Source of the DNA: Geotalea uraniireducens Rf4
Lineage (GTDB): Bacteria; Desulfobacterota; Desulfuromonadia; Geobacterales; Geobacteraceae
Reading direction: 5' to 3'
NCBI RefSeq assembly: GCF_000016745.1
Contig: NC_009483.1
Span: 4,410,001 to 4,442,000, forward strand
DNA length: 32,000 nt
Shown: piece by piece, positions 269-25,388 of the stretch
Layout: the number at the start of each line of letters is the position of its first letter
Position numbering within the stretch: position 1 is the stretch's first letter
The notes under the pieces: model-generated
The model's input: only the letters and a program-made list of their open reading frames with translations
Database searches by the model: none
Told to the model about the DNA's origin: nothing
Made by a program: the position numbers and the translations under genes

Positions 269-995
269 CGTTTCCCCAACATATGTGTTGCATTTCCGAA
301 CTGTATCCGCCATCTCCGGCATAGACGATGAGGGGCGGCAGTACCGATAAATCCCCCCTCCGCCCCTTGACCAACTCTACGAGAAACATTCCCGCCCCAG
401 AGATGTCGTTGCCGTGCACCATACGAAGCCGCAACGGGGCGAGCTTCAGCAGAGCTGCCTCGGCAAAAAGCTCCACCAATCGGGACGGATGATAGATGAA
501 GCAGATCCTCCCCCCCGGTTTGACCAGGTATTTCGCCGCCGTCAGGAAATCGGTGAGGCATGCGGTAGATTCGTGCCGTGCCTTGTCCCGTCCGGCCCTG
601 GGGCTCACCCGACCGGTACCGGCTCTGCGGTAGGGGGGATTCGAAACGACCAGGTCAAAGGATGATACGGGAAACACCCCCTTCAAGGAGGTGATATCCG
701 CGGCCAGAATGGAAATCCTGTCGCCGAGGCCGTTGATACTGACGTTGCGCAAGGCCAAATCCGCCAGCAATGCCTGGAATTCCACCCCGGTAACGGTGAC
801 ATCCTCCGCCTCCCTGGCCAGGATCAGGGGGATGATGCCGCAGCCGCTCCCGAGGTCAATGGCCCGTTCGCCGGTCCTGATGGCGGCAAAGTCGCACAAA
901 AGAAGCGGGTCGAGGGAGAATCGGTAGCCGTCCCGCGGCTGGCCAATGCTCAGCCGGTGTCTGCGCAACTCGTCGACGGTTTCTTCACCTTTCAC
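225..995 (-). CDS. Class I SAM-dependent N6-adenine methyltransferase, tRNA1(Val) m6A37 TrmN6/YfiC-like
   Basis: 'GYRFSLDPLLL' N-terminus, SAM motif 'IDLGSGCGIIPLILA', catalytic 'VVSNPPYRRAG' (NPPY). GTG start at 995-993 lies inside the heptamer array, with AAAGG 6 nt upstream. GTGA overlap with the upstream stop. Confidence 0.85.
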   Translation of the reverse strand: MKGEETVDELRRHRLSIGQPRDGYRFSLDPLLLCDFAAIRTGERAIDLGSGCGIIPLILAREAEDVTVTGVEFQALLADLALRNVSINGLGDRISILAADITSLKGVFPVSSFDLVVSNPPYRRAGTGRVSPRAGRDKARHESTACLTDFLTAAKYLVKPGGRICFIYHPSRLVELFAEAALLKLAPLRLRMVHGNDISGAGMFLVELVKGRRGDLSVLPPLIVYAGDGGYSSEMQHICWGNDAEQQEDSSCFAGL

Positions 996-1009
996 CTTTC
1001 ACCTTTCAC
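984..1009. repeat. Heptanucleotide tandem array (TTCACCT)x3.7; GTGAAAG on the coding strand
   Basis: Read directly: units at 984-990, 991-997 and 998-1004, partial unit 1005-1009. The array contains the TGA stop of the YfhO-like gene (994-992) and the SD and GTG start of the methyltransferase (995-993). Confidence 0.95.
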
Positions 1010-3491: not shown

Positions 3492-4607
3492 CTACTCTTC
3501 ACTCTTCACTGCCTTATAAATGTCCAGCGTCTCTCTGGCGGCCGCCTCCCAGGAAAAGGACTTCGCCCGGCGACGTCCCTGCTCCCGCATGGCCGTCGCC
3601 GTTTCTTCATTTTCTAGCACTCTGAGAAGCGCCGCGGCAACCTCCTCCACGGCCATGGGAGGGACGGCAATCCCCGCATCGCCCACCACCTCCGGCAGGG
3701 ATGTGGTGTTGGACGTTATCACAGGCACGCCGCACGCCATGGCTTCCAAGGGCGGCAGGCCGAACCCTTCGAAGAGCGACAGGTAGACGAAAACCCGTGC
3801 GCCGTCGTAAATAAAGGGGAGTTCCCCGTCGGGGACAAAACCGGTGAATACCACCTCGCCGTCGAGATTGAGCTCCCTGATCCGGCTGAACAGCCTGTCG
3901 TAAAGCCACCCCTTGCGACCGACGATGACGAGTTTCCCCGCAAATGCCCCCTTGCCTTTCAGCAGGCTGAACGCCTCGATGAGGGTGTCCAGGTTCTTTC
4001 GCGGCTGGATGGTCCCCACATAGAGGATGTAATCAGCCGGCAGCCCGTATTTCCCCCTGACGGCCGCGCCGGCAGCGGCATCACGGGACTCGATCATGGC
4101 AGGATCGAAACCGAGCATGATCGCCCTGATCTTTTCCGGCGCCACCCGGAAATCGGCCATGATCTCCTGCCTGGCGTGTTCCGAATCGGTGATGATGAAA
4201 GCGCTCCTCCTGGCGGCGATGGGTATCTGCAGCCGCCAGTAGATCCGCGCAGCCAGCTTCTCCGTTTCCGGGTGCTTGATGGGGATCAGGTCGTGCAGGG
4301 TGACCACCACCGGGCATGGTGCGAAATAGGGGATCGCGCTCTTCGGACAGTGGAGGATGTCCACCCGCTCCCTCTTGCAGGCAAGGGGGAGCAGCACATG
4401 CTCGCGCCAGAGCCGGGTGAGCGGGTTTTTGCCCGGCAGGACCATTTCCCGTGCCGCGGGGAATCTGCCCAAATGAACGGGATCGTTGTAGAAAACAATA
4501 TACTCGTTTTCGCGGTCAATGCGGAGCAGCGCTTCAAGCAGCCCCAATACATACGTCCGCGGCCCCCCTTGGGTGGAAATGGTTGAAGCATCAATGGCGA
4601 TACGCAC
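3492..4607 (-). CDS. GT4-family (GT-B) glycosyltransferase
   Basis: '[20 protein letters not shown]' EX7E-type motif. N-terminus '[11 protein letters not shown]...'. I choose GTG at 4607-4605, which has AGGAAA 6-7 nt upstream. The track ORF start at 4703 would overlap the upstream gene by 86 nt. Confidence 0.85.
3495..3510. repeat. Short heptanucleotide array (CTCTTCA)x2.3; AGTGAAG on the coding strand
   Basis: Units at 3495-3501 and 3502-3508, plus 'ct'. Encodes the last codons (...VKSEE) immediately before the TAG at 3494-3492. Confidence 0.7.
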
Positions 4608-6895: not shown

Positions 6896-7852
6896 CTAGC
6901 CATTGCGCCGCGTCCTGTCCACAAACCGGCGGCGAAAGATGGAGTAGAGCATACGCAGGTAGCGGATGGCCAGAAATAGCAGCACCGGCCGGCAGGGGCA
7001 ATAGTCGCGGTAGAGCTTGTAATTGGCCCGGAAATAAAAGGGGGAGCGGTAACTGGTCAGCATCTCTCTTACCCGCTCCCTGTTAAGCGCCTCGGTCCCG
7101 CTTGACACCGCAGTCCTGTTGTACACAACGCTTTTAGGCTCCGTAAGGAGGCGATAGCCGCGCCGCCGCGCCCTTAGTGAGAACTCCGCGTCCCCCTGGT
7201 ACTGGGGGCAGTTCTCCCGGTCGAAAAAACCGATCTCGGCGAACGCCGCCGCCGGAATCAGGGTGGAACTGCCGTGCAGCCAGTCGCAATCGCTGGTCCG
7301 GTCGAAATCAATCAGGTCGCGGCGGTTGTTGCGGTCCCTTATCTCCCCCACGTACCAGTTTATGACGCCGCCGAAGGAAAAGATGAAGTTCCGGTCCGAG
7401 TAGTCGTACATCTTCGAGGTAACGAGGCTTTTGGGGTGGCTCCGGGCGGTCTCCACCAGAGGCTCGATGAAGTCCGGCTCCACCACGTTGTCGTTATTTA
7501 TGGCCAGGATAAAGTCACCGCCCCGCCGCAAGGCCTCCCGGACACCGAGATTCGTGGCCCCCGACCACCAGAGGTTGCCGTCGCCCCTAACGATAGACAC
7601 TTGGGGAAAGCAGGCGGCGATGGCCTCCCTGGAGCCGTCGGTCGAGCCGTCATCTACGACGATGACCTCCAGATTCGGATACGTTGCGCACGCCATCGAT
7701 TCCAGAAAGGTAAGGGTTTCGTCCTTGCCGTTGTGGATCGGTACTACCGCTGCGACCTTGGGGAACCGAGGTTCGAGGAACGAGGTCCGAGGAACGAGGT
7801 ATTCACGCCGACACCAAACCCTTTGCCAGGTAGTCCTTGAACCCATCACCAT
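6896..7852 (-). CDS. GT2-family glycosyltransferase
   Basis: 'AAVVPIHNGKDETLTFLES...LEVIVVDDGSTDGS' GT-A motif. The only in-frame starts are ATG 7852, GTG 7849 and ATG 7846. ATG 7852 has AAGGA 6 nt upstream, supplied by the last ATAAAGG unit. The N-terminal ~30 residues are partly encoded by CCTCGNN heptamers. Confidence 0.8.
   Translation of the reverse strand: MVMGSRTTWQRVWCRREYLVPRTSFLEPRFPKVAAVVPIHNGKDETLTFLESMACATYPNLEVIVVDDGSTDGSREAIAACFPQVSIVRGDGNLWWSGATNLGVREALRRGGDFILAINNDNVVEPDFIEPLVETARSHPKSLVTSKMYDYSDRNFIFSFGGVINWYVGEIRDRNNRRDLIDFDRTSDCDWLHGSSTLIPAAAFAEIGFFDRENCPQYQGDAEFSLRARRRGYRLLTEPKSVVYNRTAVSSGTEALNRERVREMLTSYRSPFYFRANYKLYRDYCPCRPVLLFLAIRYLRMLYSIFRRRFVDRTRRNG
7767..7801. repeat. 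Degenerate heptanucleotide array (CGAGGNN)x5 inside the 5' end of the GT2 gene
   Basis: cgaggtt, cgaggaa, cgaggtc, cgaggaa, cgaggta read directly. 'cgaggaacgagg' occurs twice (7774-7785 and 7788-7799) and is the exact reverse complement of 7902-7913. Confidence 0.9.
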
Positions 7853-7859
7853 TCCGCGT

Positions 7860-7922
7860 CCTTTATCCTTTATCCTTTATCCTTTATCCTTTATCCTTTA
7901 TCCTCGTTCCTCGTGCCTTTAT
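7860..7922. repeat. Heptanucleotide tandem array (CCTTTAT)x6 + CCTCGTT + CCTCGTG + CCTTTAT; ATAAAGG on the coding strand
   Basis: Six perfect units at 7860-7901, then three more heptads to 7922. Contains the TAA stop of gmd (7893-7891) and the SD for the downstream GT2. Confidence 0.97.
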
Positions 7923-8886
7923 AGAGCTCCATCTCGCTCTCCACCATCTCGCGGATGATCTCACCCAAGGATTTTGTCCTGGCCCAGTGCAAACGGGTGC
8001 TGATTTTTGCCGGATTGCCGCACAGCTGCACCTGTTCCGCCGGGCGGAAGAACTTCGGGTCCACCTTGACATACCTTTCGTAGTCAAGGCCGAGACATGA
8101 AAAAGCCGTCGCCACAAACTCCCGCACGCTGTGGGTTTCGCCGCTGGCAACAACAAAGTCCTCCGGCGCATCAGCCTGGAGCATCAGCCACATGGCATTC
8201 ACATAGTCAGGTGCATAGCCCCAGTCCCGGTATGCGTCCAGGTTGCCGAGGGTCAAGGTATCCTGGAGCCCAAGTTTGATCCGCACTGCCGACGAGACGA
8301 TTTTCCGCGTCACGAACTCGTAGCCGCGGCGAGGAGACTCATGATTGTAAAGGATGCCGGTGCAGGCGAACATGCCGTACTGGCTCCGGTAGTTCTTCAC
8401 CAGGTGATAGCCGGACACCTTGGAGATGCCGTAGATGGAACGGGGATTGAACGGTGTCGCCTCGTCCTGCGGCGCATTGGTCACATTGCCGAACATCTCG
8501 CTAGTGCCCGCGAAGTAGAAACGGCAACCGGGCGCGAATTCCTTGATAGAAGCGAGGAGATAGTGGGTGCTGTTGACGTTGTTGTTCAATATGGAGATCT
8601 CATCCTCGAAGGAATAGCTGACGAAGCTGGAGGCGGCCAGGTGGTAACACTCATCGGGAATGACGTCCTTCACCGTCTTAATGATAGAGAGGACGTTGTC
8701 CAGGGAAGCAACGTGGAGGTGGATCCTGTCCGCAAGATGGCCAATGTTCTTCAGCTTGTGGGCGGTATCCTCGATGGCTGTCCGCCGGACGATGCCGTGG
8801 ACTTCATAGCCTTTCGCCAGGAGCAGTTCCGCCAGGTATGAGCCGTCCTGACCGGCCAAGCCGGTAATGAGCGCTTTTTTCTTCAT
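7891..8886 (-). CDS. gmd: GDP-mannose 4,6-dehydratase (short form), copy 1
   Basis: 'MKKKALITGLAGQDGSYLAELLL', 'GILYNHESPRRGYEFVTRKI', 'RDWGYAPDYVNAMWLMLQ', 'FFRPAE' are canonical Gmd motifs. The last ~9 codons are encoded by the heptamer array. Confidence 0.92.
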   Translation of the reverse strand: MKKKALITGLAGQDGSYLAELLLAKGYEVHGIVRRTAIEDTAHKLKNIGHLADRIHLHVASLDNVLSIIKTVKDVIPDECYHLAASSFVSYSFEDEISILNNNVNSTHYLLASIKEFAPGCRFYFAGTSEMFGNVTNAPQDEATPFNPRSIYGISKVSGYHLVKNYRSQYGMFACTGILYNHESPRRGYEFVTRKIVSSAVRIKLGLQDTLTLGNLDAYRDWGYAPDYVNAMWLMLQADAPEDFVVASGETHSVREFVATAFSCLGLDYERYVKVDPKFFRPAEQVQLCGNPAKISTRLHWARTKSLGEIIREMVESEMELYKGTRNEDKG

Positions 8887-9969: not shown

Positions 9970-11214
9970 CTATACGTCATCGATTATCTCTTGATATAAA
10001 TCCGCATACCTTTTCGCGACCCCATCCATAGCAAACTCTTTTTCCACCTTTTCCCGCGACATGCGACACAACCGTTCTCTCCGGGTATCATCGGCAAGGA
10101 CCCAGTCGATACCACGGGCAAAGTCGTTGGTGTCAAAGGAATGGGCAAGGTAGCCGGTTTGTTCATGGACAACAATATCGAGCAGTCCGGTGGAGGCAAA
10201 CGCCACGACGGGAGTTCCGCACGCCATTGCCTCTGACGCAGTCTGGCCAAAACTCTCCTGCATCGACGGAACGCACATGACATCTGCTGCGGCGTAAGCC
10301 AGAGTCAGGCTTATATCGTCATGCAGTTTACCCAGGCAATGAACCGGCAACGGTATATCCGATAAATCGGCAGGCTGTGAAGCACCAAAAACCAGCAATT
10401 CCGCTTTCTCCGACCAACCGTCTGCAACAACCTGCAAAGCTGACTTAAGGTGGTGGAAACCTTTATTGTGGTCACCAACTATTGTTGCACCGAACAAGAT
10501 CAATTTTTTATCCTGCGGCAACCCCAGGAGTTCGCGGGCAACCCCTTTATTCACTTGTTTGTAACGACTCAAGTCCAATCCATTGGGGATTACTTCGACG
10601 CGTGCTTCCCGGAACAGGGAGCTTGCCTTGACACAATCGCCCATCCAATGACTTGGCGCAACTATGGTCAAGTTCAACCCCTGCCAGGATTTCGCTTTTA
10701 GATTCCATTCCCAGCGCGTTAAATCGTAGTCTCTTTTAGAGCCAAGTTGTGGACAGGCGCCGCAAGAGTTGCAATAGCGCATACACTTACCCGGGAGGTT
10801 ACATCCGCCTGTAAAAGCCCATGAATCGTGCATCGTCCACACTAAAGGCCGGTTAAATTTTCGTAGCGCCGTTACGGGCACAAATCCACAGCAGATCCAA
10901 TGCAGATGCACCAGATCAGGAGCGATCCCCTCAATGGAGCCATGAATATTGCTGGGCGCCCAGGATACCCCCCACGAACTCTGCTGACGGTTGGGGTAAA
11001 ACTTCAAGGGCAAGAGATCAAGGTAGGTGCACAGCTTGTTGATCGCTATTCCAGGTAATCCCTGTGAACCTGTTACGGTCGAATCCTGGCTCGTTTTGTA
11101 CTGGACAAGCATCCGCGAATTGACATCTATACTTTGCAACCCTTTATGCAGACGATACGCGGCACGTCCAGCGCCTCCTTCAATATCGTAAGTGCTGATG
11201 TGGGCAATGCGCAT
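9970..11214 (-). CDS. GT4-family glycosyltransferase
   Basis: 'MRIAHISTYDIEGGAGRAAYRLHKGL' N-terminus and 'ESFGQTASEAMACGTPVVAF' EX7E motif. Confidence 0.85.
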   Translation of the reverse strand: MRIAHISTYDIEGGAGRAAYRLHKGLQSIDVNSRMLVQYKTSQDSTVTGSQGLPGIAINKLCTYLDLLPLKFYPNRQQSSWGVSWAPSNIHGSIEGIAPDLVHLHWICCGFVPVTALRKFNRPLVWTMHDSWAFTGGCNLPGKCMRYCNSCGACPQLGSKRDYDLTRWEWNLKAKSWQGLNLTIVAPSHWMGDCVKASSLFREARVEVIPNGLDLSRYKQVNKGVARELLGLPQDKKLILFGATIVGDHNKGFHHLKSALQVVADGWSEKAELLVFGASQPADLSDIPLPVHCLGKLHDDISLTLAYAAADVMCVPSMQESFGQTASEAMACGTPVVAFASTGLLDIVVHEQTGYLAHSFDTNDFARGIDWVLADDTRRERLCRMSREKVEKEFAMDGVAKRYADLYQEIIDDV

Positions 11215-11225
11215 AGACTTTTATC

Positions 11226-12401
11226 CTACACTAAAGATAGCTTTAAAAGCAATGAACAGGAGTCTTTCAATCGCTCTTTTGAGTGATTTCTCATATAACC
11301 TTCGTAATCCGGCCCAATGCTCTCGTCATCCGCCATACCTGTGGCAAGCTGGCGAATTGCCCTAATGCAGGCATCGACATCATCTTGCTTGATCACTTTC
11401 CCCAGCCTGAATTTTCGGACCCTTTCTGCCATGCAAAAACCATCACTGACTATAATGGCTTTTTTAAAACTAGCCGCTTTTGTCAGCAAATTACTGCTGT
11501 GATAAAACTTTTGATATGCGGCAAAGACAATATCGCTTGCGCAAACCAGCGCGTTAAAAGAAGGCTCATCAGGAATAAATCCTAAATGGAAAAAACAATT
11601 AGATGGACAGGAGGCAATGAAGTTTTCGATATGGTCCAATTCTTTCCTTGTGAAGGTATACTTGTAAAAAACCCCGGCAAAGACAAAAAACAATCCCTCG
11701 TCCACAAGTTTTTTTGCAACTTCAACTAACATCAGCGTTCCTTTTCGCTTGTCAATACATCCGAAAAGGCCAACGATCTTCCTGCCTCTAGCTCTCTCCT
11801 TTATTTGTCCCACGACAGGATAATTCATATCTGGAGCCGATAAATCTGCAAAATCAGGAAAGGAGATTACTGGCTTGGCGAGTTCCCTTTCGAGTGTCTC
11901 TTTGACGCCCTCGTCAAGTAAGGCAACTGATTTGCAGCCGGAACTAAATAATGGAGCGTCACGCACTGGGGTCGGTACCCGCAAGCGCTCCGGAGCAAAA
12001 TAAAGACCAGACCAGACATATGGGAAAACAGCGTCCACAATCCAAGGTTTAAGATGTTTGGCAAAGTACCCATCTAGATAAGTAAAAAACACCAAGTCAG
12101 GCAAAATACCGGTATTTGCCGCTGCCTTCTTTATTGCCAAGGCAGCAGCCTTCCACTGTCTTGTAGTTTTGACCACCCCGGGAAGGAAAGGCTGACATAT
12201 CGGCTCCGTATACTCATATGGGCAAAAGCGCCCAGCCATTTCCCCACAATTCTCTGTTATCCAGTCACCAACTTCAACGGGATTCGGACAGAAGACAACA
12301 ACGTTATAGCCCAATTCCAGTATTGTTTCAGTAAGCAACTTAACGTATGTCGGGTGATGTCCGGTCCAGACTCCGTCAATCAATGCGATGATTTTAGTCA
12401 T
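11226..12401 (-). CDS. Divergent GT-B-fold-like protein (putative glycosyltransferase), function unknown
   Basis: Start placed at ATG 12401 (MTKIIALIDG...), preceded by AGGAG. Two Rossmann-like halves ('KIVGLFGCIDKRKG...FVFAGV', 'SSNLLTKAASFKKAIIVSD') but no clear EX7E motif. Confidence 0.5.
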   Translation of the reverse strand: MTKIIALIDGVWTGHHPTYVKLLTETILELGYNVVVFCPNPVEVGDWITENCGEMAGRFCPYEYTEPICQPFLPGVVKTTRQWKAAALAIKKAAANTGILPDLVFFTYLDGYFAKHLKPWIVDAVFPYVWSGLYFAPERLRVPTPVRDAPLFSSGCKSVALLDEGVKETLERELAKPVISFPDFADLSAPDMNYPVVGQIKERARGRKIVGLFGCIDKRKGTLMLVEVAKKLVDEGLFFVFAGVFYKYTFTRKELDHIENFIASCPSNCFFHLGFIPDEPSFNALVCASDIVFAAYQKFYHSSNLLTKAASFKKAIIVSDGFCMAERVRKFRLGKVIKQDDVDACIRAIRQLATGMADDESIGPDYEGYMRNHSKERLKDSCSLLLKLSLV

Positions 12402-12433
12402 GAAACTCCTGGCGGACCCTTTCCGAACCGGAT

Positions 12434-12586
12434 TCAAAACCAATGTTCAGGAATGAGAATTTCGGCTTGATTCAGCGTCTCAAACAGTGCTTCATTCGCC
12501 ACTATCCTCTTACCAAAGCGAGATTTGTGCCGAAACGGATTGGCTTCATACGGGTAGCATTGAATGCCGCAAGATGGCAGCAGAGA
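12434..12586 (-). pseudogene. Decayed C-terminal fragment of an rve (DDE integrase-core) transposase
   Basis: My translation of the minus strand gives '...YEANPFRHKSRFGKRIVANEALFETLNQAEILIPEHWF*'. The stretch 'EALFETLNQAEILI' resembles the conserved '...E(I/L)F.TL.EA..LIE.WR..YN' tail of IS3-type transposases. It is truncated and has no start codon. Confidence 0.4.
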
Positions 12587-12646
12587 TCATAGGTATAGTT
12601 TAGGTTAGGTTAGCCCCCAAGATCTCCACTTAAAGATAAACTTGGT

Positions 12647-13609
12647 TTATATCAGTTTAAACCATCGCCTCGTGGATCGTCTCTTAGGCTTAATAAATTT
12701 ATAAAATAATACCCACACTATATCTAATAAACTTATAGATACAGCTTTTTTTGTATAATTACTTAGCCAGAGAGATGGCAATAGAAATTTTCGCCCTTCA
12801 TAGTACTCACGTCTCCACTCAAAAGCATAAACTTTACCTGTTGTATTGACATTCAAGTACTGTTCTGCAAACCAGATTCTGGCCTGCCTATAGCATCTAT
12901 TAATATAATTCGATTTGTCACTTATGGTAATAGATCCTTCATGCTTTCTAAAGAAAGAAAGCGGTTTAGAAACAAATGCTATTTGCGCGTATTCTTTAGC
13001 AACGAGCAAATATATTAAAAGATCTGGACCTGCACCATGCTCATAAAAATTTTTGATTGTTGGAGATGGTATTTCTTCCACTAGATTTTTTCTCAGGTCA
13101 TCAGTCCTGAAAATGGCACATCCTGGAGAATATGGAACATTACCTGCAAACAATGACTCCTGGATAAAGTATGAAGAAGGCAATTTCCCCGTCTTCTCTG
13201 CTAATCCATACTGCTCTTGCCCTGTCCAAGGTTCTGTACCCATTATCGCTAGAGTAAAAACAAAACCTACTTCTTCATCACATAAAAAAGGAAGCGTTTT
13301 TTCTAAAAAAAGGGGATCAATAAGGTCATCTGAAAAAAGGATCTTACCAAAACAACCTCTTGCTTCATCAATGCAACGCTGCCAATTTCGGACAGGGCCG
13401 ATGTTGGTTTCATTACGAAAGATTCGAATGCGCGAGTCCTGTCGGGCGAACGTTTTACATACTTCCCAAGTCTTGTCTGTACTGGCATTGTCAACCACAA
13501 TGACTTCAATATCAGTTATGGTTTGTTCAATTGCAGACTGGATGCAAGGCCCAATAAAGGACTCTCTATTATAAACTGGTATCAGTATGCTAACTCTTGG
13601 GATAATCAT
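12647..13609 (-). CDS. GT2-family glycosyltransferase (AT-rich, probably foreign)
   Basis: 'VSILIPVYNRESFIGPCIQSAIEQT...IEVIVVDNASTDKT'. Hand-counted lines give 28-38% G+C. Confidence 0.88.
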   Translation of the reverse strand: MIIPRVSILIPVYNRESFIGPCIQSAIEQTITDIEVIVVDNASTDKTWEVCKTFARQDSRIRIFRNETNIGPVRNWQRCIDEARGCFGKILFSDDLIDPLFLEKTLPFLCDEEVGFVFTLAIMGTEPWTGQEQYGLAEKTGKLPSSYFIQESLFAGNVPYSPGCAIFRTDDLRKNLVEEIPSPTIKNFYEHGAGPDLLIYLLVAKEYAQIAFVSKPLSFFRKHEGSITISDKSNYINRCYRQARIWFAEQYLNVNTTGKVYAFEWRREYYEGRKFLLPSLWLSNYTKKAVSISLLDIVWVLFYKFIKPKRRSTRRWFKLI

Positions 13610-13689
13610 TTCAATAACAACAGTCCTTTTCTGCAGATGACGGAGTTAATATTTTTGCTGCAAGTGAAGTTTGTCTTATTATTAGTTCC

Positions 13690-15027
13690 TTATTCCACGG
13701 CACTCAAGGCTACCCTTTTTCTACGCAGAACACACCAAGGAAGTACCCAGGCTGCCGTCAGCGAGAACGAGGCGATAAGGGCATAAACTATTCCTGCCAC
13801 TCCGAACCTGGGAGCTAGGGATACCTGGAGGAGTACAGTAATGACCGCCTGGGCCGGGATATAGATGACAAAGGGACGCAGGTAGCTCATGCTCTGCAGA
13901 ACCATGGCAAAGGTATCGCTCCAGATGCGTATTACGTTATAGCCACCCATAATGACAATAAACAGTACCGGAACCATAACCGCCTTACCCGGCGCAAGGA
14001 GGTGAATCAACTCTGGCATAAAGAAAGCAAGCAGCAGGGTCGCTCCTGAAAGGAGCAGCACTCCCATGACAATATATTGCTTCACGTAGCCCATCACCAC
14101 ATGCCAGTCATTCCGGGCCACCGCTTCAGCACAAACCGGCCATACAGCAATCAGAAGGGCTGTGTAAATAAAATAAATCAGTCCGAATATTTTAGATGTC
14201 AGGTTGTAGACGACAATTTCATTGGCCGGTAAAAAACGCGCCATCACCAAATAGTCCACCTGGAGCACCCCTGCCGCCATGATAGCGGAAAGCCAGAATT
14301 TAAGCCCCCGTTTCATCAATGGCCACAATATCTCCCGCTTGACAGAACTGCTCCGCTGCAGACTTCCTGTAAACTGCAGCAGGAATGCCACAGCAGGAAG
14401 CATCCCTGCGGGCCCAAATGCGGCGACAAGGCTCCAATACAACTTGTGTTCAAGTGGGCTCCGCGCCACAAAAACAATCGCAGCAAAACTGATAAGAGAC
14501 GCTACAGCCGGCACTACGTTTGCCAAATATCCTTTTTGCTCGGCGTACCATATCCGATAGGCAATCCCGCCGAAACAGGTCGCTATCGATATCACTCCTG
14601 TGATGAAAAAATGTCGTGCCTTTTCAGCATCGTTTAGGAACGGAAACCCCTTTAAGATGAGCGGCGCCAAGAAGGGACTGGCGAAGAACAGGAATAAAAT
14701 GCTTAGTAACATGAGAAAGATGGCGATGACCCCCGCCATCGCAATGAAATCCTCGTAGGGTTGCTTCCCTGCCCGCCGTTCGGAAATATGGTTCTGCAGG
14801 CTCGTGCCAACCCCCATGTCTGCCAAGAGGTACCATCCCTGTAAGCCCCCCAACACTGCATAGAGGGCATACTGTTCCGTACCAAGACCTTGAATCAATA
14901 TACGAATACTAAACAGCCCCACCACCGCCGTTACCAGACGGCTGATCCATGCACTAGCCGCAACCAGCAGATGGGAAGGTATGCGGTTCAAGATTCCCGG
15001 TTTAGCATTGACGGTCAAAGATGTCAC
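13690..15027 (-). CDS. wzx: Wzx-type oligosaccharide flippase (MOP superfamily)
   Basis: Polytopic throughout. The N-terminus '[30 protein letters not shown]' is typical of polysaccharide-biosynthesis/Wzx proteins. GTG start at 15027 overlaps the tyv stop; TTG at 15018 is an alternative. Confidence 0.8.
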
Positions 15028-19411: not shown

Positions 19412-19454
19412 ACATTTTCCGTTTTTGCCATTGAAGATATAAGGCCTTTCACCA

Positions 19455-19482
19455 CCGACCGCCGACTGCCGCCCCCCGACCG
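19455..19482. repeat. Degenerate 4-unit relic of the CCGACCG heptamer family
   Basis: ccgaccg, ccgactg, ccgcccc, ccgaccg. Starts 6 nt downstream of the ddhA stop (19491-19489). Same orientation as the right arm of the 24220-24372 array. Confidence 0.6.
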
Positions 19483-20967: not shown

Positions 20968-20975
20968 TAAAAAAT

Positions 20976-21060
20976 CTGGGAACTGGGAACTGGGAACTGG
21001 GAACTGGGAAGTCCATTACCGATCCCCGATCCCGGATCCCAGTTCACCGGTTTTCTTCAG
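20976..21060. repeat. Composite element copy 1: (CTGGGAA)x5 + conserved 31-nt G/C-run core with (CCGATCC-like)x3
   Basis: Five perfect units at 20976-21010. Core 'taccgatccccgatcccggatcccagttcac' is at 21017-21047. The TAA stop of the DUF2304 gene (21018-21016) lies between array and core. On the coding strand the array is followed by ATTTTTTATT. Confidence 0.95.
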
Positions 21061-22127: not shown

Positions 22128-24116
22128 TCAATCCGGGAACTGGGAACTGGGAACTGGGTTTTTACCGATCCCCGACCCCAGATCCCCGTTCACTGACTTC
22201 AGCAGCTTTGCGGCAAACTCCGGATTCAGCGACTTAAGGATTACATATTGGTCGGTGGCCTTCTGCGTCTCCTTGCTCGCCGCATAGGCCAAGCCCAGAT
22301 TATAGTGGGCCTCGCTCAGGCGTGGATTCATGGCAATGGATTTTTCATAATTATCTATGGAGTCAGCAAGCTGTCCCATGGAATCATAGGCCAATCCAAG
22401 GTTGTTATAGCCGAGGGCAAACCATTCGTTCTGGTATGCGGCGTTCATGCCCATGCTCGCATCAAACAACTCATAGGTCGGGCTGTAACGGCCGGCATAG
22501 GTCCCGAGCTGGCCAAGCGCTATGCCGATATTGTTCCACGCATCGGGATGCCCCGGAGAAATGCCTATGGAGCGGATCAACGCAGGTATCGCCTTTTTCG
22601 GCTGATGCTTCTTCAAATAGGCATAGGCCAGGTTGTTCCACGGCCGCGACTTGTCGGGGGACTTTGCCGCCACATCCTGCCAGAGGGTCGTCTCGTCCTG
22701 CCAGACCATGTTGCGCCTGAAGGTTGCCGTTGCAAGGGAGACGGCGACCAGCAGCAGGGCGATGAATGCTATTCCGGCAATCTGTGGCCTCCGCACAGCC
22801 AATCGGTCCACCGCCAGCACCACGGCCGTTGACAGCGCCATGAAAAATCCGATCGACGGCAGGTAGACCCTGTGCTCGAAGATAACGTCAACGATCGGGA
22901 TGACGCTCGACTCAACCGCCAGGGCGATGAAAAACCAGAAAATGCCGAAGGCTGTGAGGCGGTAAACGGCGGTCGGCGGTCGGTGGTCGGTGGTCGATGG
23001 TTGATGGTAAAAGGCGGTCGGAGGTCGGTGGTCGGTGGTCGATGGTGAACTATCCAACGTAGAACGTAGAACGTAGAACGTAGAACGATAAACAAAATAA
23101 ATCCCCACGCCGAAGATCGCCAGCAGCAGCAGGAAAGAGAGGAACACAGGGGCATTGAAAAAGGAGTGGGCCACCGGAAAGTCATGGTCAAGGTTCTGCC
23201 CTACCGGGAAAAACAGCAGCCTGAGATAGGTGACGATCACCCGGAACTGGGTGAAGAGATAGTCAAGCCGTGGCATCTCCGTCTGGACCATGGTTGCCGC
23301 CTCCAGCCTCCCCAGGAGCTGTCCCGCCCCGGAGGAGCCGAGCATGCTCAAAGGGATGATGGCCAGGGTGAGGAGAAATGCACCGATGAACATGACCCGC
23401 TTGGCGATGCTCCCCCTGAAAAACATGAACTCGTAAAGAATCACCGTGAACGGCAGGGTAAAGGCGATCTCCTTGGTTTTCATGGCAAGGACCGCCGTTA
23501 AGAGCGACAGGAGATAGCAGGCTGCGGCAAACAGCTTTCCCCGCCGGCCGCCCCCCCCCTGCTCCAACCGCGCCATGATGTAGAGGACGAGGGAACCAAT
23601 GTAGAACATGGCTGCAAGTGAAGTGAAGCGCTGGACAATGTAGGTTACCGCCTGGGTCTGGAGCGGATGGGCAACGAAGAGGAGCGCCGCAAACAGCGCA
23701 ATCGGTCCGCTGAAGCGCCCCCTCTCCCCCTCTTCCGCCGGAGCGAGCAACGGGGTCCTGAAAGTGAGGGTCACCAGGGTATAGACAAGGAGGGCGGTCG
23801 CAAGATGGATCGCCAGATTGACCAGATGATAGCCGAAGACATCGAGACCGTTCAGCCGGTAATTGACGGCAAAGGTGAAGTCCCCCACCGCCCGGCTCCC
23901 CTTGACGGCGAAGGGGTCGGCGAACGGATCCACGTTTCTCACGACCGGGTTGCCGAGGATGTTGGCAATATCGTCGAAGTTGAAGGTGGCGGTGAAGGTG
24001 TTGGAGTAGGCCAGAAGCCCAAGGGAGATAACGAGGAGAAGATGAAGCACGGTCGCAAACCGCGTCCGCCGGTAAACAAAGTCACTGAATCTGCTTGTCA
24101 TGGATAGAGAGTTCAC
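22128..24116 (-). CDS. PMT/TMTC-like GT-C membrane glycosyltransferase with C-terminal TPR domain
   Basis: 'FNFDDIANILGNPVV' acidic loop after the first helix and 'EHRVYLPSIGF' match PMT_2/TMTC-type enzymes. C-terminal TPR-like repeats include 'WNNLAYAYLKKHQPKKAIPALIRSI', 'AWNNIGIALGQLG', 'YNNLGLAYDSMGQLADSIDNYEKSIAMNP' and 'AHYNLGLAYAAS'. GTG start at 24116 has AGGA about 7 nt upstream. Confidence 0.75.
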   Translation of the reverse strand: MNSLSMTSRFSDFVYRRTRFATVLHLLLVISLGLLAYSNTFTATFNFDDIANILGNPVVRNVDPFADPFAVKGSRAVGDFTFAVNYRLNGLDVFGYHLVNLAIHLATALLVYTLVTLTFRTPLLAPAEEGERGRFSGPIALFAALLFVAHPLQTQAVTYIVQRFTSLAAMFYIGSLVLYIMARLEQGGGGRRGKLFAAACYLLSLLTAVLAMKTKEIAFTLPFTVILYEFMFFRGSIAKRVMFIGAFLLTLAIIPLSMLGSSGAGQLLGRLEAATMVQTEMPRLDYLFTQFRVIVTYLRLLFFPVGQNLDHDFPVAHSFFNAPVFLSFLLLLAIFGVGIYFVYRSTFYVLRSTLDSSPSTTDHRPPTAFYHQPSTTDHRPPTAVYRLTAFGIFWFFIALAVESSVIPIVDVIFEHRVYLPSIGFFMALSTAVVLAVDRLAVRRPQIAGIAFIALLLVAVSLATATFRRNMVWQDETTLWQDVAAKSPDKSRPWNNLAYAYLKKHQPKKAIPALIRSIGISPGHPDAWNNIGIALGQLGTYAGRYSPTYELFDASMGMNAAYQNEWFALGYNNLGLAYDSMGQLADSIDNYEKSIAMNPRLSEAHYNLGLAYAASKETQKATDQYVILKSLNPEFAAKLLKSVNGDLGSGIGKNPVPSSQFPD
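22134..22202. repeat. Composite element copy 2: (CTGGGAA)x3.6 + conserved 31-nt core
   Basis: Units at 22134-22158. Core 'taccgatccccgaccccagatccccgttcac' at 22163-22193 matches copy 1 at 28 of 31 positions by hand alignment. The flanking 'cttcag' is also shared. Here the GT-C/TPR ORF reads through the whole element. Confidence 0.9.
22968..23089. repeat. Intragenic heptanucleotide arrays: two blocks of GGCGGTC/GGTGGTC/GATGGTN units, then (GAACGTA)x4-5
   Basis: Block 1 at 22968-23009 (6 units), 'aaa', block 2 at 23013-23047 (5 units), 'aactatc', then caacgta + gaacgta x3 + gaacgat (23055-23089). Encodes '...STFYVLRSTLDSSPSTTDHRPPTAFYHQPSTTDHRPPTAVY...'. Confidence 0.95.
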
Positions 24117-24219
24117 CCGGAAATCCTGTCAGAATTGAAGGTAATGATCATTTGAAAATAGCAAAAAACTATTTTTGCCACGAATAACACGAAAAGCATC
24201 TAATGTATAGGCCCTTTTT

Positions 24220-24372
24220 GGCGGTCGGCGGTCGGCGGTCGGCGGTCGGAAGTCAACCCATAGGACTACAGTCGGCGGTCGGCGGTCGGAAGTCAACCCA
24301 TCGACCATCGACCATCGACCATCGACCATCGACCACCGACCACCGACCACCGACCACCGACCGCCGACCGCC
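24220..24372. repeat. 153-nt composite heptamer palindrome: (GGCGGTC)x4 ... (GGCGGTC)x2 ... (TCGACCA)x5 (CCGACCA)x3 (CCGACCG)x2
   Basis: Units mapped by hand. 'ggcggtcggcggtcggaagtcaaccca' is directly repeated (24234-24260 and 24274-24300). 24357-24372 is the exact reverse complement of 'ggcggtcggcggtcgg', which occurs in several registers in the left arm. Starts 2 nt after the GT2 stop. Confidence 0.97.
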
Positions 24373-24374
24373 TC

Positions 24375-25388
24375 TCATCTATCCAGCAATTCCTTGAAAG
24401 ACATCCGGTATCGCTGCAACAGGCGGGCCATCTCCCTGCCTGAGATTCTCCTCTTTTCCATCACCAGCGCCCGTTTTTTCAGCATGGCCGGCGCACCGCA
24501 CAGTGCGTCCCTGGTCCCTTTGGCGATCGCCTTGAGCAGGGCATTGCGGGAGCCGCTTGCAAGGAATTCCCCACCGGAGCCGCTGGCGAAAATGACCGCC
24601 CGCGCCTGCTCCAGGTAGCGGACCAGGGTGAAAAACGGAACCAGCAGCAGCATAGCGAGGGGAAAGCACTTCAACGCCACCCAGTAATGGTTACGTTCCA
24701 CCAGATAGAGCTTGAACGGCGAAAAGACCCCGCCGGTCCTGGAATACTTGTGATAGACCACCGCCTGCGTGGCGAGGAGCGCTTGCCACCCCGCCAGCCT
24801 GCACCTTAGCCCCAGGTCGGTATCCTCGGCATAGGCGAAAAAATCGTCGTCGAAGAAACCGGTCTCGTCCAGCATTGTCCGCCGGTAGAGGGCAACGCAG
24901 GCGCTGGGGAAGAGGATCTCCTCAACCTCTGCCATATTCATGGTTGAATAGCGCTTGAGGCGGAACCTCCCGCGGGACATGCCGTCGCGGCAGACGCCAT
25001 GGCCGAGGGAATCGATCCGGTCCGGCTCGTCAAATGAACAGATCCGGCTCCCCACCATCCCCACCCGCGGGTCGCTGTCCGCCACGGCAACAATGGTTGC
25101 CAGCCAGTTTTCATCAGCCCTGGTATCGTTGTTGAGGGCAACGATATACTCGCCCGAGGCATGGGTAAGGCCGACGTTGTTGCCGGTGGCAAAGCCGGTG
25201 TTTTCCTTGAGCTCGACGAGCTTCACCCAGGGGTAGCGCTCACGGAGAAACCCTACAGACCCGTCGGAAGAGCCGTTATCGACGATGATCACCTCGAAGT
25301 CCTGGAAGCTCTGGGCCGACAGGCTGTCCAGGCAGACAGCCAGGTGCTCCAGGCCGTTCCAGTTGACGATTATTATGGAGACTCTCAT
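24375..25388 (-). CDS. GT2-family glycosyltransferase (rhamnosyltransferase-like)
   Basis: 'VSIIIVNWNGLEHLAVCLDSL...FEVIIVDNGSSDGS...NTGFATGNNVG'. ATGA overlap with the upstream gene. Confidence 0.88.
   Translation of the reverse strand: MRVSIIIVNWNGLEHLAVCLDSLSAQSFQDFEVIIVDNGSSDGSVGFLRERYPWVKLVELKENTGFATGNNVGLTHASGEYIVALNNDTRADENWLATIVAVADSDPRVGMVGSRICSFDEPDRIDSLGHGVCRDGMSRGRFRLKRYSTMNMAEVEEILFPSACVALYRRTMLDETGFFDDDFFAYAEDTDLGLRCRLAGWQALLATQAVVYHKYSRTGGVFSPFKLYLVERNHYWVALKCFPLAMLLLVPFFTLVRYLEQARAVIFASGSGGEFLASGSRNALLKAIAKGTRDALCGAPAMLKKRALVMEKRRISGREMARLLQRYRMSFKELLDR

Follow-up and report, generated by a model that had tools for sequence, protein, structure and literature searches.

Long simple sequence repeats (LSSRs) are tandem arrays that are attributed to polymerase slippage, and heptanucleotide units form their most abundant class in many prokaryotes, according to the account of Mrazek (2007) given in PMC4679880 and PMC4692102. 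Here we analyze an array of this kind in Geotalea uraniireducens Rf4, which lies at the junction of a gmd-like sugar dehydratase gene and a gene for a GT2-family glycosyltransferase. The window, meaning the entire stretch of DNA that was analyzed, comprises 32,000 nt (NCBI assembly GCF_000016745.1, contig NC_009483.1, positions 4,410,001-4,442,000), and all coordinates given below are window positions. The junction is one of many fast-mutating 7-nt repeats at the gene boundaries of this lineage and not a purpose-built translational switch. It is probably a compound, hypermutable heptanucleotide simple sequence repeat (SSR) that is neutral with respect to its own length and that has remodelled the ends of both genes.

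Several heptamer families have been described that resemble this junction. The GGGNATC heptamers of Xanthomonas and Nostoc are about 90% intergenic and lie nearest to the stop of the upstream open reading frame (ORF), mostly within about 28 nt (Rehm et al. 2015, PMC4692102). Some of them occur as inverted pairs, and both their length and their sequence vary between close relatives (PMC4692102). In marine Beggiatoaceae, forward arrays of the TAACTGA repeat stop all reading frames and are consequently confined to the very end of ORFs (MacGregor 2015, PMC4679880). These arrays are often found a few nucleotides upstream of a start codon, and CsrA, S1 and Csp were proposed as their binders (PMC4679880). 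In Geobacter metallireducens, four to five tandem heptamers are present within and between genes (Aklujkar et al. 2009, PMC2700814). The class 3 sites of this species, with five copies of MTYCTGA, form opposite-strand pairs whose distance varies, as between proB and proA, and pairs of this kind were catalogued between co-directional genes. The G. metallireducens sites were proposed to be regulator sites, sites for integration host factor (IHF) or HU, or regulatory RNA (PMC2700814).

Repeat anatomy of the gmd-GT2 junction

Both genes at the junction are encoded on the minus strand, and the repeats are described here in the coding direction. The upstream ORF (7891-8886) encodes a dehydratase of the short-chain dehydrogenase/reductase type with 331 residues, which matches the Pfam family GDP_Man_Dehyd with E = 2.5e-112. 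It is referred to as gmd-like because its TIGR01472 score of 355 bits is below the cut-off of 415 bits. The protein ends in ...ELYKGTRNEDKG*, and its last eight codons together with the TAA stop (7893-7891) are supplied by heptamer units. The repeat begins with a single ATAAAGG unit at 7916-7922, which matches the gmd codons Y-K-G (TAT AAA GGC). This unit is followed by the upstream arm, two NNCGAGG heptamers (CACGAGG AACGAGG, 7902-7915) that also lie inside the gmd ORF, and then by a perfect (ATAAAGG)6 array at 7860-7901. Tandem Repeats Finder reported the latter at 7859-7904 with a period of 7, 6.6 copies and a match of 100%. The gmd stop falls inside this array, which provides TAA in both remaining frames as well, and which contains six AAGGA motifs. 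The last AAGGA (7859-7863) is the likely Shine-Dalgarno (SD) sequence of the GT2 start codon, ATG 7852, from which it is separated by a 6-nt spacer. At -11 to -7 of the GT2 start, it is among the better SD matches in the cluster.

The GT2-family glycosyltransferase ORF (6896-7852) encodes 318 residues, and the same 318-residue protein was obtained by independent gene calls on Logan contigs. The only in-frame GT2 start codons in the window strain are those of the ATG-GTG-ATG at 7844-7852. The sequence GTGAATA at 7800-7806 is the homologue of the start codon of relatives (GTG/ATG AAT A...) and is out of frame in the window. Directly behind it lies the downstream arm, five CCTCGNN heptamers (7765-7799) that are the complement of NNCGAGG and are translated in the GT2 N-terminus; Tandem Repeats Finder assigned this array a period of 7/14. 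The 12-mer CGAGGAACGAGG (7913-7902) is perfectly complementary to CCTCGTTCCTCG, which is present at 7799-7788 and again at 7785-7774, both times within the five-unit array. The two arm arrays are thus on opposite strands, 100-120 nt apart, and their spacing changes with copy number and with inserts. Since residue 36 is the first of the Pfam GT2 domain, the N-terminal ~33 residues constitute a lineage-specific extension, which is not present in GT2 homologues outside the closest clade.

The original prediction for this junction, made from the sequence alone, had described the (ATAAAGG)6 layout, the gmd stop within the array, the six AAGGA motifs, the 6-nt spacing and the complementarity of the 12-mers, and all of these descriptions are accurate. 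It had also noted that translation would be stopped in every frame. A three-frame translation bears this out, with a TAA met in each frame inside the array, yet this is an arithmetic property of any heptamer that contains TAA.

Heptamer arrays in the window and in relatives

Period-7 arrays are strongly over-represented in the window. With exact matching, 13 tandem arrays of period 7 were counted against an expectation of 0.05, and the same count returned no arrays with a period of 6 or of 8-12. Tolerant scoring gave 11 period-7 arrays against 0.1 expected in the window, and none in either of two related loci, namely 20.9 kb of L139, the syntenic region of the Geobacter sp. metagenome-assembled genome (MAG) GCA_016177775.1, and 12.9 kb of the relative L001. 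In the window, heptamer arrays are located at junctions at 984-1009, 3494-3510, 7859-7922, 19448-19482, 20976-21040, 22135-22188 and 24220-24372, and one further block (22961-23087) lies in frame within an ORF. The view of the gmd-GT2 boundary as a purpose-built junction does not agree with these counts, as the lineage has many heptamer arrays of its own besides this one, which the syntenic L139 does not have.

The closest relatives provide natural variants of the same junction. Four contigs, L002 to L005, carry identical GT2 proteins that are 90% identical to that of the window, and they share the layout ACCGAGG-AGCGAGG-(ATAAAGR)n ... GTG-AAT-AAC-...-(CCTCGNN)3. The number of ATAAAGG units is 2, 4, 3 and 2 in these contigs, respectively, compared to 6 in the window, while the number of CCTCGNN units is constant at three. 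Over the next 1,537 nt the four contigs differ by 0-1 substitutions. Because such near-identical contigs differ in n, the array mutates far faster than single bases. The comparison of unit number among strains, which had been proposed along with the original prediction, therefore reveals a variable array, and the proposal that slippage is tolerated is consistent with it, as both the stop of gmd and the ORF of the GT2 are preserved in relatives with 2, 3, 4 or 6 units. In addition, short-read contigs of the window's own strain end inside the ATAAAGG array.

More distant variants differ in layout as well as in number. The GT2 of L007 is 88% identical to that of the window, and its junction reads (ATAAAGG-AACGAGG)2(ATAAAGG-TTCGAGG)2-AACGAGG, followed by an insert of ~60 nt and twelve CCTCGNN units. 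Its 5' arm is downstream of the gmd stop, whereas in the window and in L002-L005 the 5' arm occupies the last gmd codons. L001 retains two degenerate CCTCGNN-type units. In L139, whose GT2 is 76-77% identical, the gmd-GT2 gap is 28 nt long, neither array is present and the GT2 begins directly at MPKV. The expansion of heptamers is lineage-specific and recent, because L139 and L001 have no period-7 arrays and the relatives that carry them are polymorphic. As a side observation, the 28-nt gap of L139 (L139:9970-10000) is itself a 14-nt direct duplication, TGAGACGGGACA repeated twice, that resembles four GASAYGK-like heptamers unrelated to the units of the window.

The start codon of the GT2 has shifted along with the repeats. 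It is GTG-AAT-AAC in L002-L005 and L001, the homologous ATG-AAT-AGC in L007, and the upstream ATG 7852 in the window, and the ancestral ATG at MPKV is gone within the closest clade. Across these lineages the choice of start codon follows the number of CCTCGNN units. For example, the window GTG at 7806-7804 is out of frame because its five units leave 43 nt to the sequence CCCAAG, compared to 45 nt in L002. The ATAAAGG array of L002-L005 and L007 is 37 to ~110 nt away from the start codon that is used. Thus, the proposal that the last AAGGA serves as SD is plausible for the window strain, but the arrangement is not conserved.

Two further observations concern the flanks of the array in these relatives. 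The L002-L005 contigs are identical from ~85 nt 5' of the array to 1.5 kb 3' of it, and farther upstream in gmd they diverge by up to ~10%, with switch points that differ by contig. This pattern indicates putative mosaic recombination within gmd of L002-L005. The array was considered as the recombination seam and this was rejected, as the step in divergence among L002-L005 lies 85-180 nt upstream inside gmd and its point varies by contig. In L001 (L001:5960-6010) this GT2, with its leader, comes after a GT4 gene and not after gmd, and homology to the gmd-linked versions starts at GGGACC...ATAAAGGAT, a remnant of the repeat; this is the sole case in which homology starts at the repeat. When a pattern derived from the conserved 5' coding region of the GT2 was compared with metagenomes, it retrieved unrelated chance matches only.

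We propose that slipped-strand mispairing generated the junction, and that it would still be remodelling it, in a lineage prone to 7-nt repeats. The three arrays (the NNCGAGG units, the perfect ATAAAGG array and the complementary CCTCGNN array ~100 nt downstream) would persist because changes of length at this junction are nearly neutral. A heptamer containing TAA stops all frames within three units, so gmd always ends within a few codons, and the last unit always restores the identical sequence beside the GT2 start. The gmd-like protein has gained an eight-residue tail and a new stop from the repeats. The GT2 has lost its ancestral MPKV start and now probably begins upstream by means of a repeat-derived SD, translating the CCTCGNN array as its N-terminal extension. 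The complementary arrays would fold as a hairpin in the polycistronic mRNA that encloses the ribosome-binding site without occluding it. As the site is not occluded in the predicted structure, an effect of the hairpin, for example on mRNA stability or processing, would be secondary at most. The first ATAAAGG unit may be the seed of the array, since its coincidence with the gmd codons Y-K-G is compatible with an in-situ amplification of local sequence. At the same position L002 has TAT AAG GGA and L139 has TAC AAC AAG TGA.

The ATAAAGG unit is not confined to this lineage. A cross-phylum set was assembled from at least 120 stretches of genome contigs with (ATAAAGG)n of about three or more units, in which 122 arrays within 8-kb loci were classified. 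The stretches belong to Bacteroidota, Acidobacteriota, Cyanobacteriota, Chloroflexota, Planctomycetota and other phyla, and there are no Geobacteraceae among the 120 matches listed. Among these listed matches, 49 of the 122 arrays sit at the 3' end of a sense-strand gene, on the stop or immediately behind it, compared to 16 that are antisense. Only 13 of the 122 have a sense start within 40 nt, and only eight are at a tight stop-start junction. Several of the listed MAGs have three to five (ATAAAGG)n loci each, and other period-7 arrays are present in the listed 8-kb loci at 0.12 per kb.

Predicted RNA structure and alternative explanations

The predicted fold of the 171-nt junction is not exceptional (z = -1.34), with 26 of 200 shuffled sequences folding at least as well. 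The 12-bp arm helix (-24.5 kcal/mol) is included in the minimum free energy structure, and in the ensemble of the window the arms pair with a probability of P = 0.86. Two registers are populated, a proximal one (P = 0.78) and a distal one (P = 0.21). Arm pairing is predicted with P = 0.55-0.61 in L002-L004 and with P = 0.77 in L007, where the helix has z = -5.8 and none of 200 shuffles was as good. The SD and AUG are inside the hairpin loop and mostly unpaired, with predicted unpaired probabilities of ~0.64 and ~0.49, respectively, and the ATAAAGG array is predicted to be the unstructured part of this ~100-nt loop. The idea of a hairpin that encloses the array, the SD and the start codon is therefore retained as far as the two-register arm helix is concerned, but the whole 171-nt fold is not better than shuffles. 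The further suggestion of a translational switch is disfavored by the mostly unpaired SD and AUG and by the model, in which a copy number from 1 to 10 is without effect.

Two structural candidates were tried and rejected. Copy number as a structural switch was dismissed because an in-silico series from n = 0 to n = 10 was flat for n of at least 1. A covariation of the arms, GGAACG/CGTTCC versus GGAGCG/CGCTCC, was rejected by a cross-lineage test, in which the upstream arms of L002 and L007 matched the downstream arrays of other lineages at least as well as those of their own. The arms thus appear, on sequence comparison, to take their NN variants from a common pool, with no lineage-specific compensatory evolution. 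No sigma-70-like promoter, such as might arise from GATAAA units, was found in 7500-8200, and the coding strand has no terminator-like site at the junction. The single terminator-like match in 7500-8200 is on the plus strand inside gmd, and this is no more than in shuffles.

The main rival explanation is a functional RNA hairpin, in which the arm helix of the gmd-GT2 mRNA is kept for RNase III or other processing, for stabilization, or for translational coupling. For coupling, ribosomes ending gmd could melt the 5' arm inside the gmd ORF. We regard this explanation as rather unlikely, although the recurrence and the strength of the paired-array helices keep it alive. All of the natural variants are predicted to pair their arms, and the 5' arm lies in the last gmd codons in both the window and L002-L005. 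The window has just two loci with a perfect inverted repeat of 12 nt or more within 150 nt, this junction and 24220-24361, compared to a mean of 0.32 matches per 32 kb after shuffling, and both loci are pairs of heptamer arrays. The second pair directly follows a gene stop, and its predicted helix (24205-24385, -120.3 kcal/mol) has z = -10.4 and was equalled by none of 200 shuffles, which adds to the significant helix of L007. However, the whole-region fold of the window does not exceed shuffles, and the SD and AUG are left mostly unpaired in the loop. The geometry needed for coupling is not conserved, since the 5' arm of L007 is downstream of the gmd stop. Arm covariation specific to a lineage is lacking, the syntenic L139 has no such hairpin, and the junction has neither a match to an Rfam family at E <= 1 nor the U-tract of a terminator. 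A broader proposal, which we consider improbable, is that paired complementary heptamer arrays are self-propagating hairpin elements that rewrite gene boundaries and place surface-glycan genes under tunable RNase III/CsrA control. If this were true, such arrays would donate stops, SDs, starts and short peptide tails as they propagate, the points of post-transcriptional control would be their RNA helices in combination with the single-stranded AAGGA tracts, and their copy number would be a fast evolutionary dial.

The array could also be a contingency locus, in which slippage of the CCTCGNN units switches the frame of the GT2 and results in phase-variable expression or N-terminal variants. ATG 7852 would be in frame with n = 2, 5 or 8 and GTG 7806 with n = 0, 3 or 6, and other values would be off. 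The array does lie near the beginning of the coding sequence of a glycosyltransferase in a glycan cluster, unit number is 2, 3, 5 or 12 by lineage with the start codon shifting accordingly, and a 14-nt near-perfect duplication within the CCTCGNN array is a plausible slippage substrate. Yet every allele observed is in frame (ON), with no OFF allele among the relatives compared, and it is the ATAAAGG number that varies in L002-L005 while the CCTCGNN number is invariant. Slippage of the CCTCGNN array should also be slow because its units are imperfect, and the perfect, hypervariable array is between stop and start, where its length has no effect on frame or promoter. We judge a contingency locus to be very unlikely. 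There is also a slender chance, taken over its RNA and DNA forms together, that the repeats are a platform for protein binding. At the RNA level, CsrA (or S1 or Csp) would putatively bind the six AAGGA motifs and repress or titrate GT2 translation; at the DNA level, the paired arrays would be bound, by analogy, by a global regulator or a protein of the IHF/HU type. G. sulfurreducens possesses CsrA, which affects exopolysaccharide genes in this species, and transcripts for exopolysaccharides and glycosyltransferases are raised when csrA is deleted (PMC11934962). Its in-silico CsrA motif, VVAAGGAGRV, is SD-like (PMC11934962). Binding would also agree with the prediction that the six AAGGA are unpaired in the loop, the last one overlapping the SD, and with the like proposals made for the TAACTGA repeats (PMC4679880) and for the paired repeats of G. 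metallireducens (PMC2700814). Against it, the number of GGA motifs ranges from 2 to 6 in close relatives and the array is absent in L139. The TGAAAGG and AGTGAAG junction arrays of the same cluster contain no GGA, and in the predicted fold the GGA motifs are not in short hairpin loops. A CsrA dimer, moreover, bridges ~10 nt or more, and the 7-nt spacing of the repeats is shorter. Least probable, and hardly to be expected, is the insertion of a small mobile element similar to a miniature inverted-repeat transposable element, with the segment from arm to arm as the element and the heptamer arrays as its terminal inverted repeats. The segment of ~140 bp does have inverted termini, L007 has its extra ~60-nt insert at the same place, another composite heptamer element is found twice in the window (21016-21047 and 22162-22193, 91%), and in L001 the gene that precedes the GT2 leader is a different one, the homology beginning at the repeat. 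Nevertheless, the window contains no second copy of the internal sequence and no target-site duplication was noticed. The unit number of the arms varies in the manner of an SSR and not of fixed terminal repeats, and the upstream arm and first unit overlap conserved gmd codons.

Several points also weigh against the preferred explanation, a compound SSR shaped by slippage. Each of the three array-bearing lineages shows the complementary layout, which is found once more at 24220-24372, and the paired-array helices are highly significant in L007 and at 24205-24385. Neutral slippage alone leaves a nearby complementary array unexplained. Three junction arrays have purine-rich units that combine a stop with an AAGG-like motif, and such units could reflect selection for function, beyond a filter of tolerance. 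Finally, the variation in length is known from a comparison between contigs and not from reads of one population.

The surroundings of the junction contain further heptamers. The cluster is a glycan biosynthesis locus on one strand, with GT1, GT2, GT4 and GT9 glycosyltransferases, DegT, sugar dehydratases, a YfhO-like protein and methyltransferases, and its GT2 homologues assigned the window to Geobacteraceae. On the minus strand, the array at 24220-24372 reads (GGCGGTC)2(GGTGGTC)4(GATGGTC)5 directly 3' of the stop of a GT2 gene (24375-25388); two complementary blocks of GACCGCC units follow this first array, and then an AT-rich stretch precedes the next gene. The block at 22961-23087 (minus strand) consists of ~130 nt of (CGTTCTA)4.6 and GACCRYC-type units, in frame in a 662-residue ORF (22128-24116), where it separates the N-terminal part from C-terminal tetratricopeptide repeats (TPR). 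The complementarity of its GACCRYC-type units to the arrays at 24298-24372, which are 1.3 kb distant, reaches 93% over 42 nt, and the same unit family is present at 19448-19482. A composite (GGGGATC)3-TAA-(CCCAGTT)n is found twice, at 20973-21047 and 22130-22193 (91% and 97% identity), forming the 3' ends of two different genes, for a DUF2304 protein and a TPR protein. Its second array is (GGGAACT)n when read on the plus strand, which is a quadruplex-type motif (G3N4). At the junction of the YfhO-like and methyltransferase genes, (TGAAAGG)3.7 (984-1009, minus strand) has a unit that combines a TGA stop, AAGG and GTG, and the actual stop and start overlap as GTGA. The corresponding junction of L139 has two-copy proto-repeats only (GGCGAGG CGCGAGG; GTGAGGG GTGAGGA). 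Between the GT4 and YfhO-like genes is (AGTGAAG)2.4 (3494-3510, minus strand). Positions 11000-14000 have a GC content of 0.42-0.45 compared to 0.55-0.60 in the rest of the cluster, which suggests a horizontally acquired block in the glycan locus.

Comparison with known repeat systems

We know of almost no functional work on heptanucleotide LSSRs. The relatives of the window provide a natural series at one junction, with unit numbers of 0, 2, 3, 4 and 6, with anything from none to 12 complementary units and with three start codons, and this series shows how repeats remodel the ends of genes without destroying the genes. It also cautions annotators and readers of genomes that the arithmetic of a repeat can produce, as a side effect, stops in every frame, motifs that resemble an SD and long hairpins. 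Should the arrays be regulatory, they would offer a new handle on the expression of glycan and biofilm genes in Geobacter.

The junction resembles the LSSRs and the short tandemly repeated repetitive sequences of cyanobacteria in its head-to-tail 7-nt units, an over-represented period, a location at gene boundaries, lineage-specific abundance and variable length. At least three copies, an excess of period 7, polymorphism of copy number and a position near the upstream stop were all found here. It differs in its host, a member of Geobacteraceae, and in having three types of units, including a complementary pair, that reach into both flanking ORFs. The GGGNATC type is itself present in the window as the GGGGATC arrays at 21019-21040 and 22165-22188. 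Unlike GGGNATC, the junction units form no G-quadruplexes, because they are A-rich (ATAAAGG) or of the form NNCGAGG.

The position typical of the TAACTGA repeats, with stops in three frames and an array just 5' of a start, holds in the window, and in the relatives the array is farther away (37 to ~110 nt). In Beggiatoa one unit is used genome-wide in 169 sets, mostly without a separate SD, whereas the window has many unrelated units and ATAAAGG itself provides the SD-like AAGGA. The class 3 sites of G. metallireducens are similar in that they belong to the same bacterial family and form opposite-strand pairs of arrays at variable distance. However, the G. metallireducens families are multicopy with a fixed sequence, and the junction units are locus-specific and polymorphic in copy number. 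The units ATAAAGG, NNCGAGG and CCTCGNN depart from the MTYCTGA consensus, and the junction has no second copy in the window. With the SSR contingency loci of Haemophilus, Neisseria and Campylobacter the junction shares a hypermutable SSR at a glycosyltransferase gene in a surface-glycan cluster. Those loci have units of 1-5 nt, compared to 7 nt here, where the hypervariable array is unable to shift the frame and no OFF alleles were seen among the relatives. As judged from its sequence, the junction has the class features of heptanucleotide LSSRs but the consensus of no named family.

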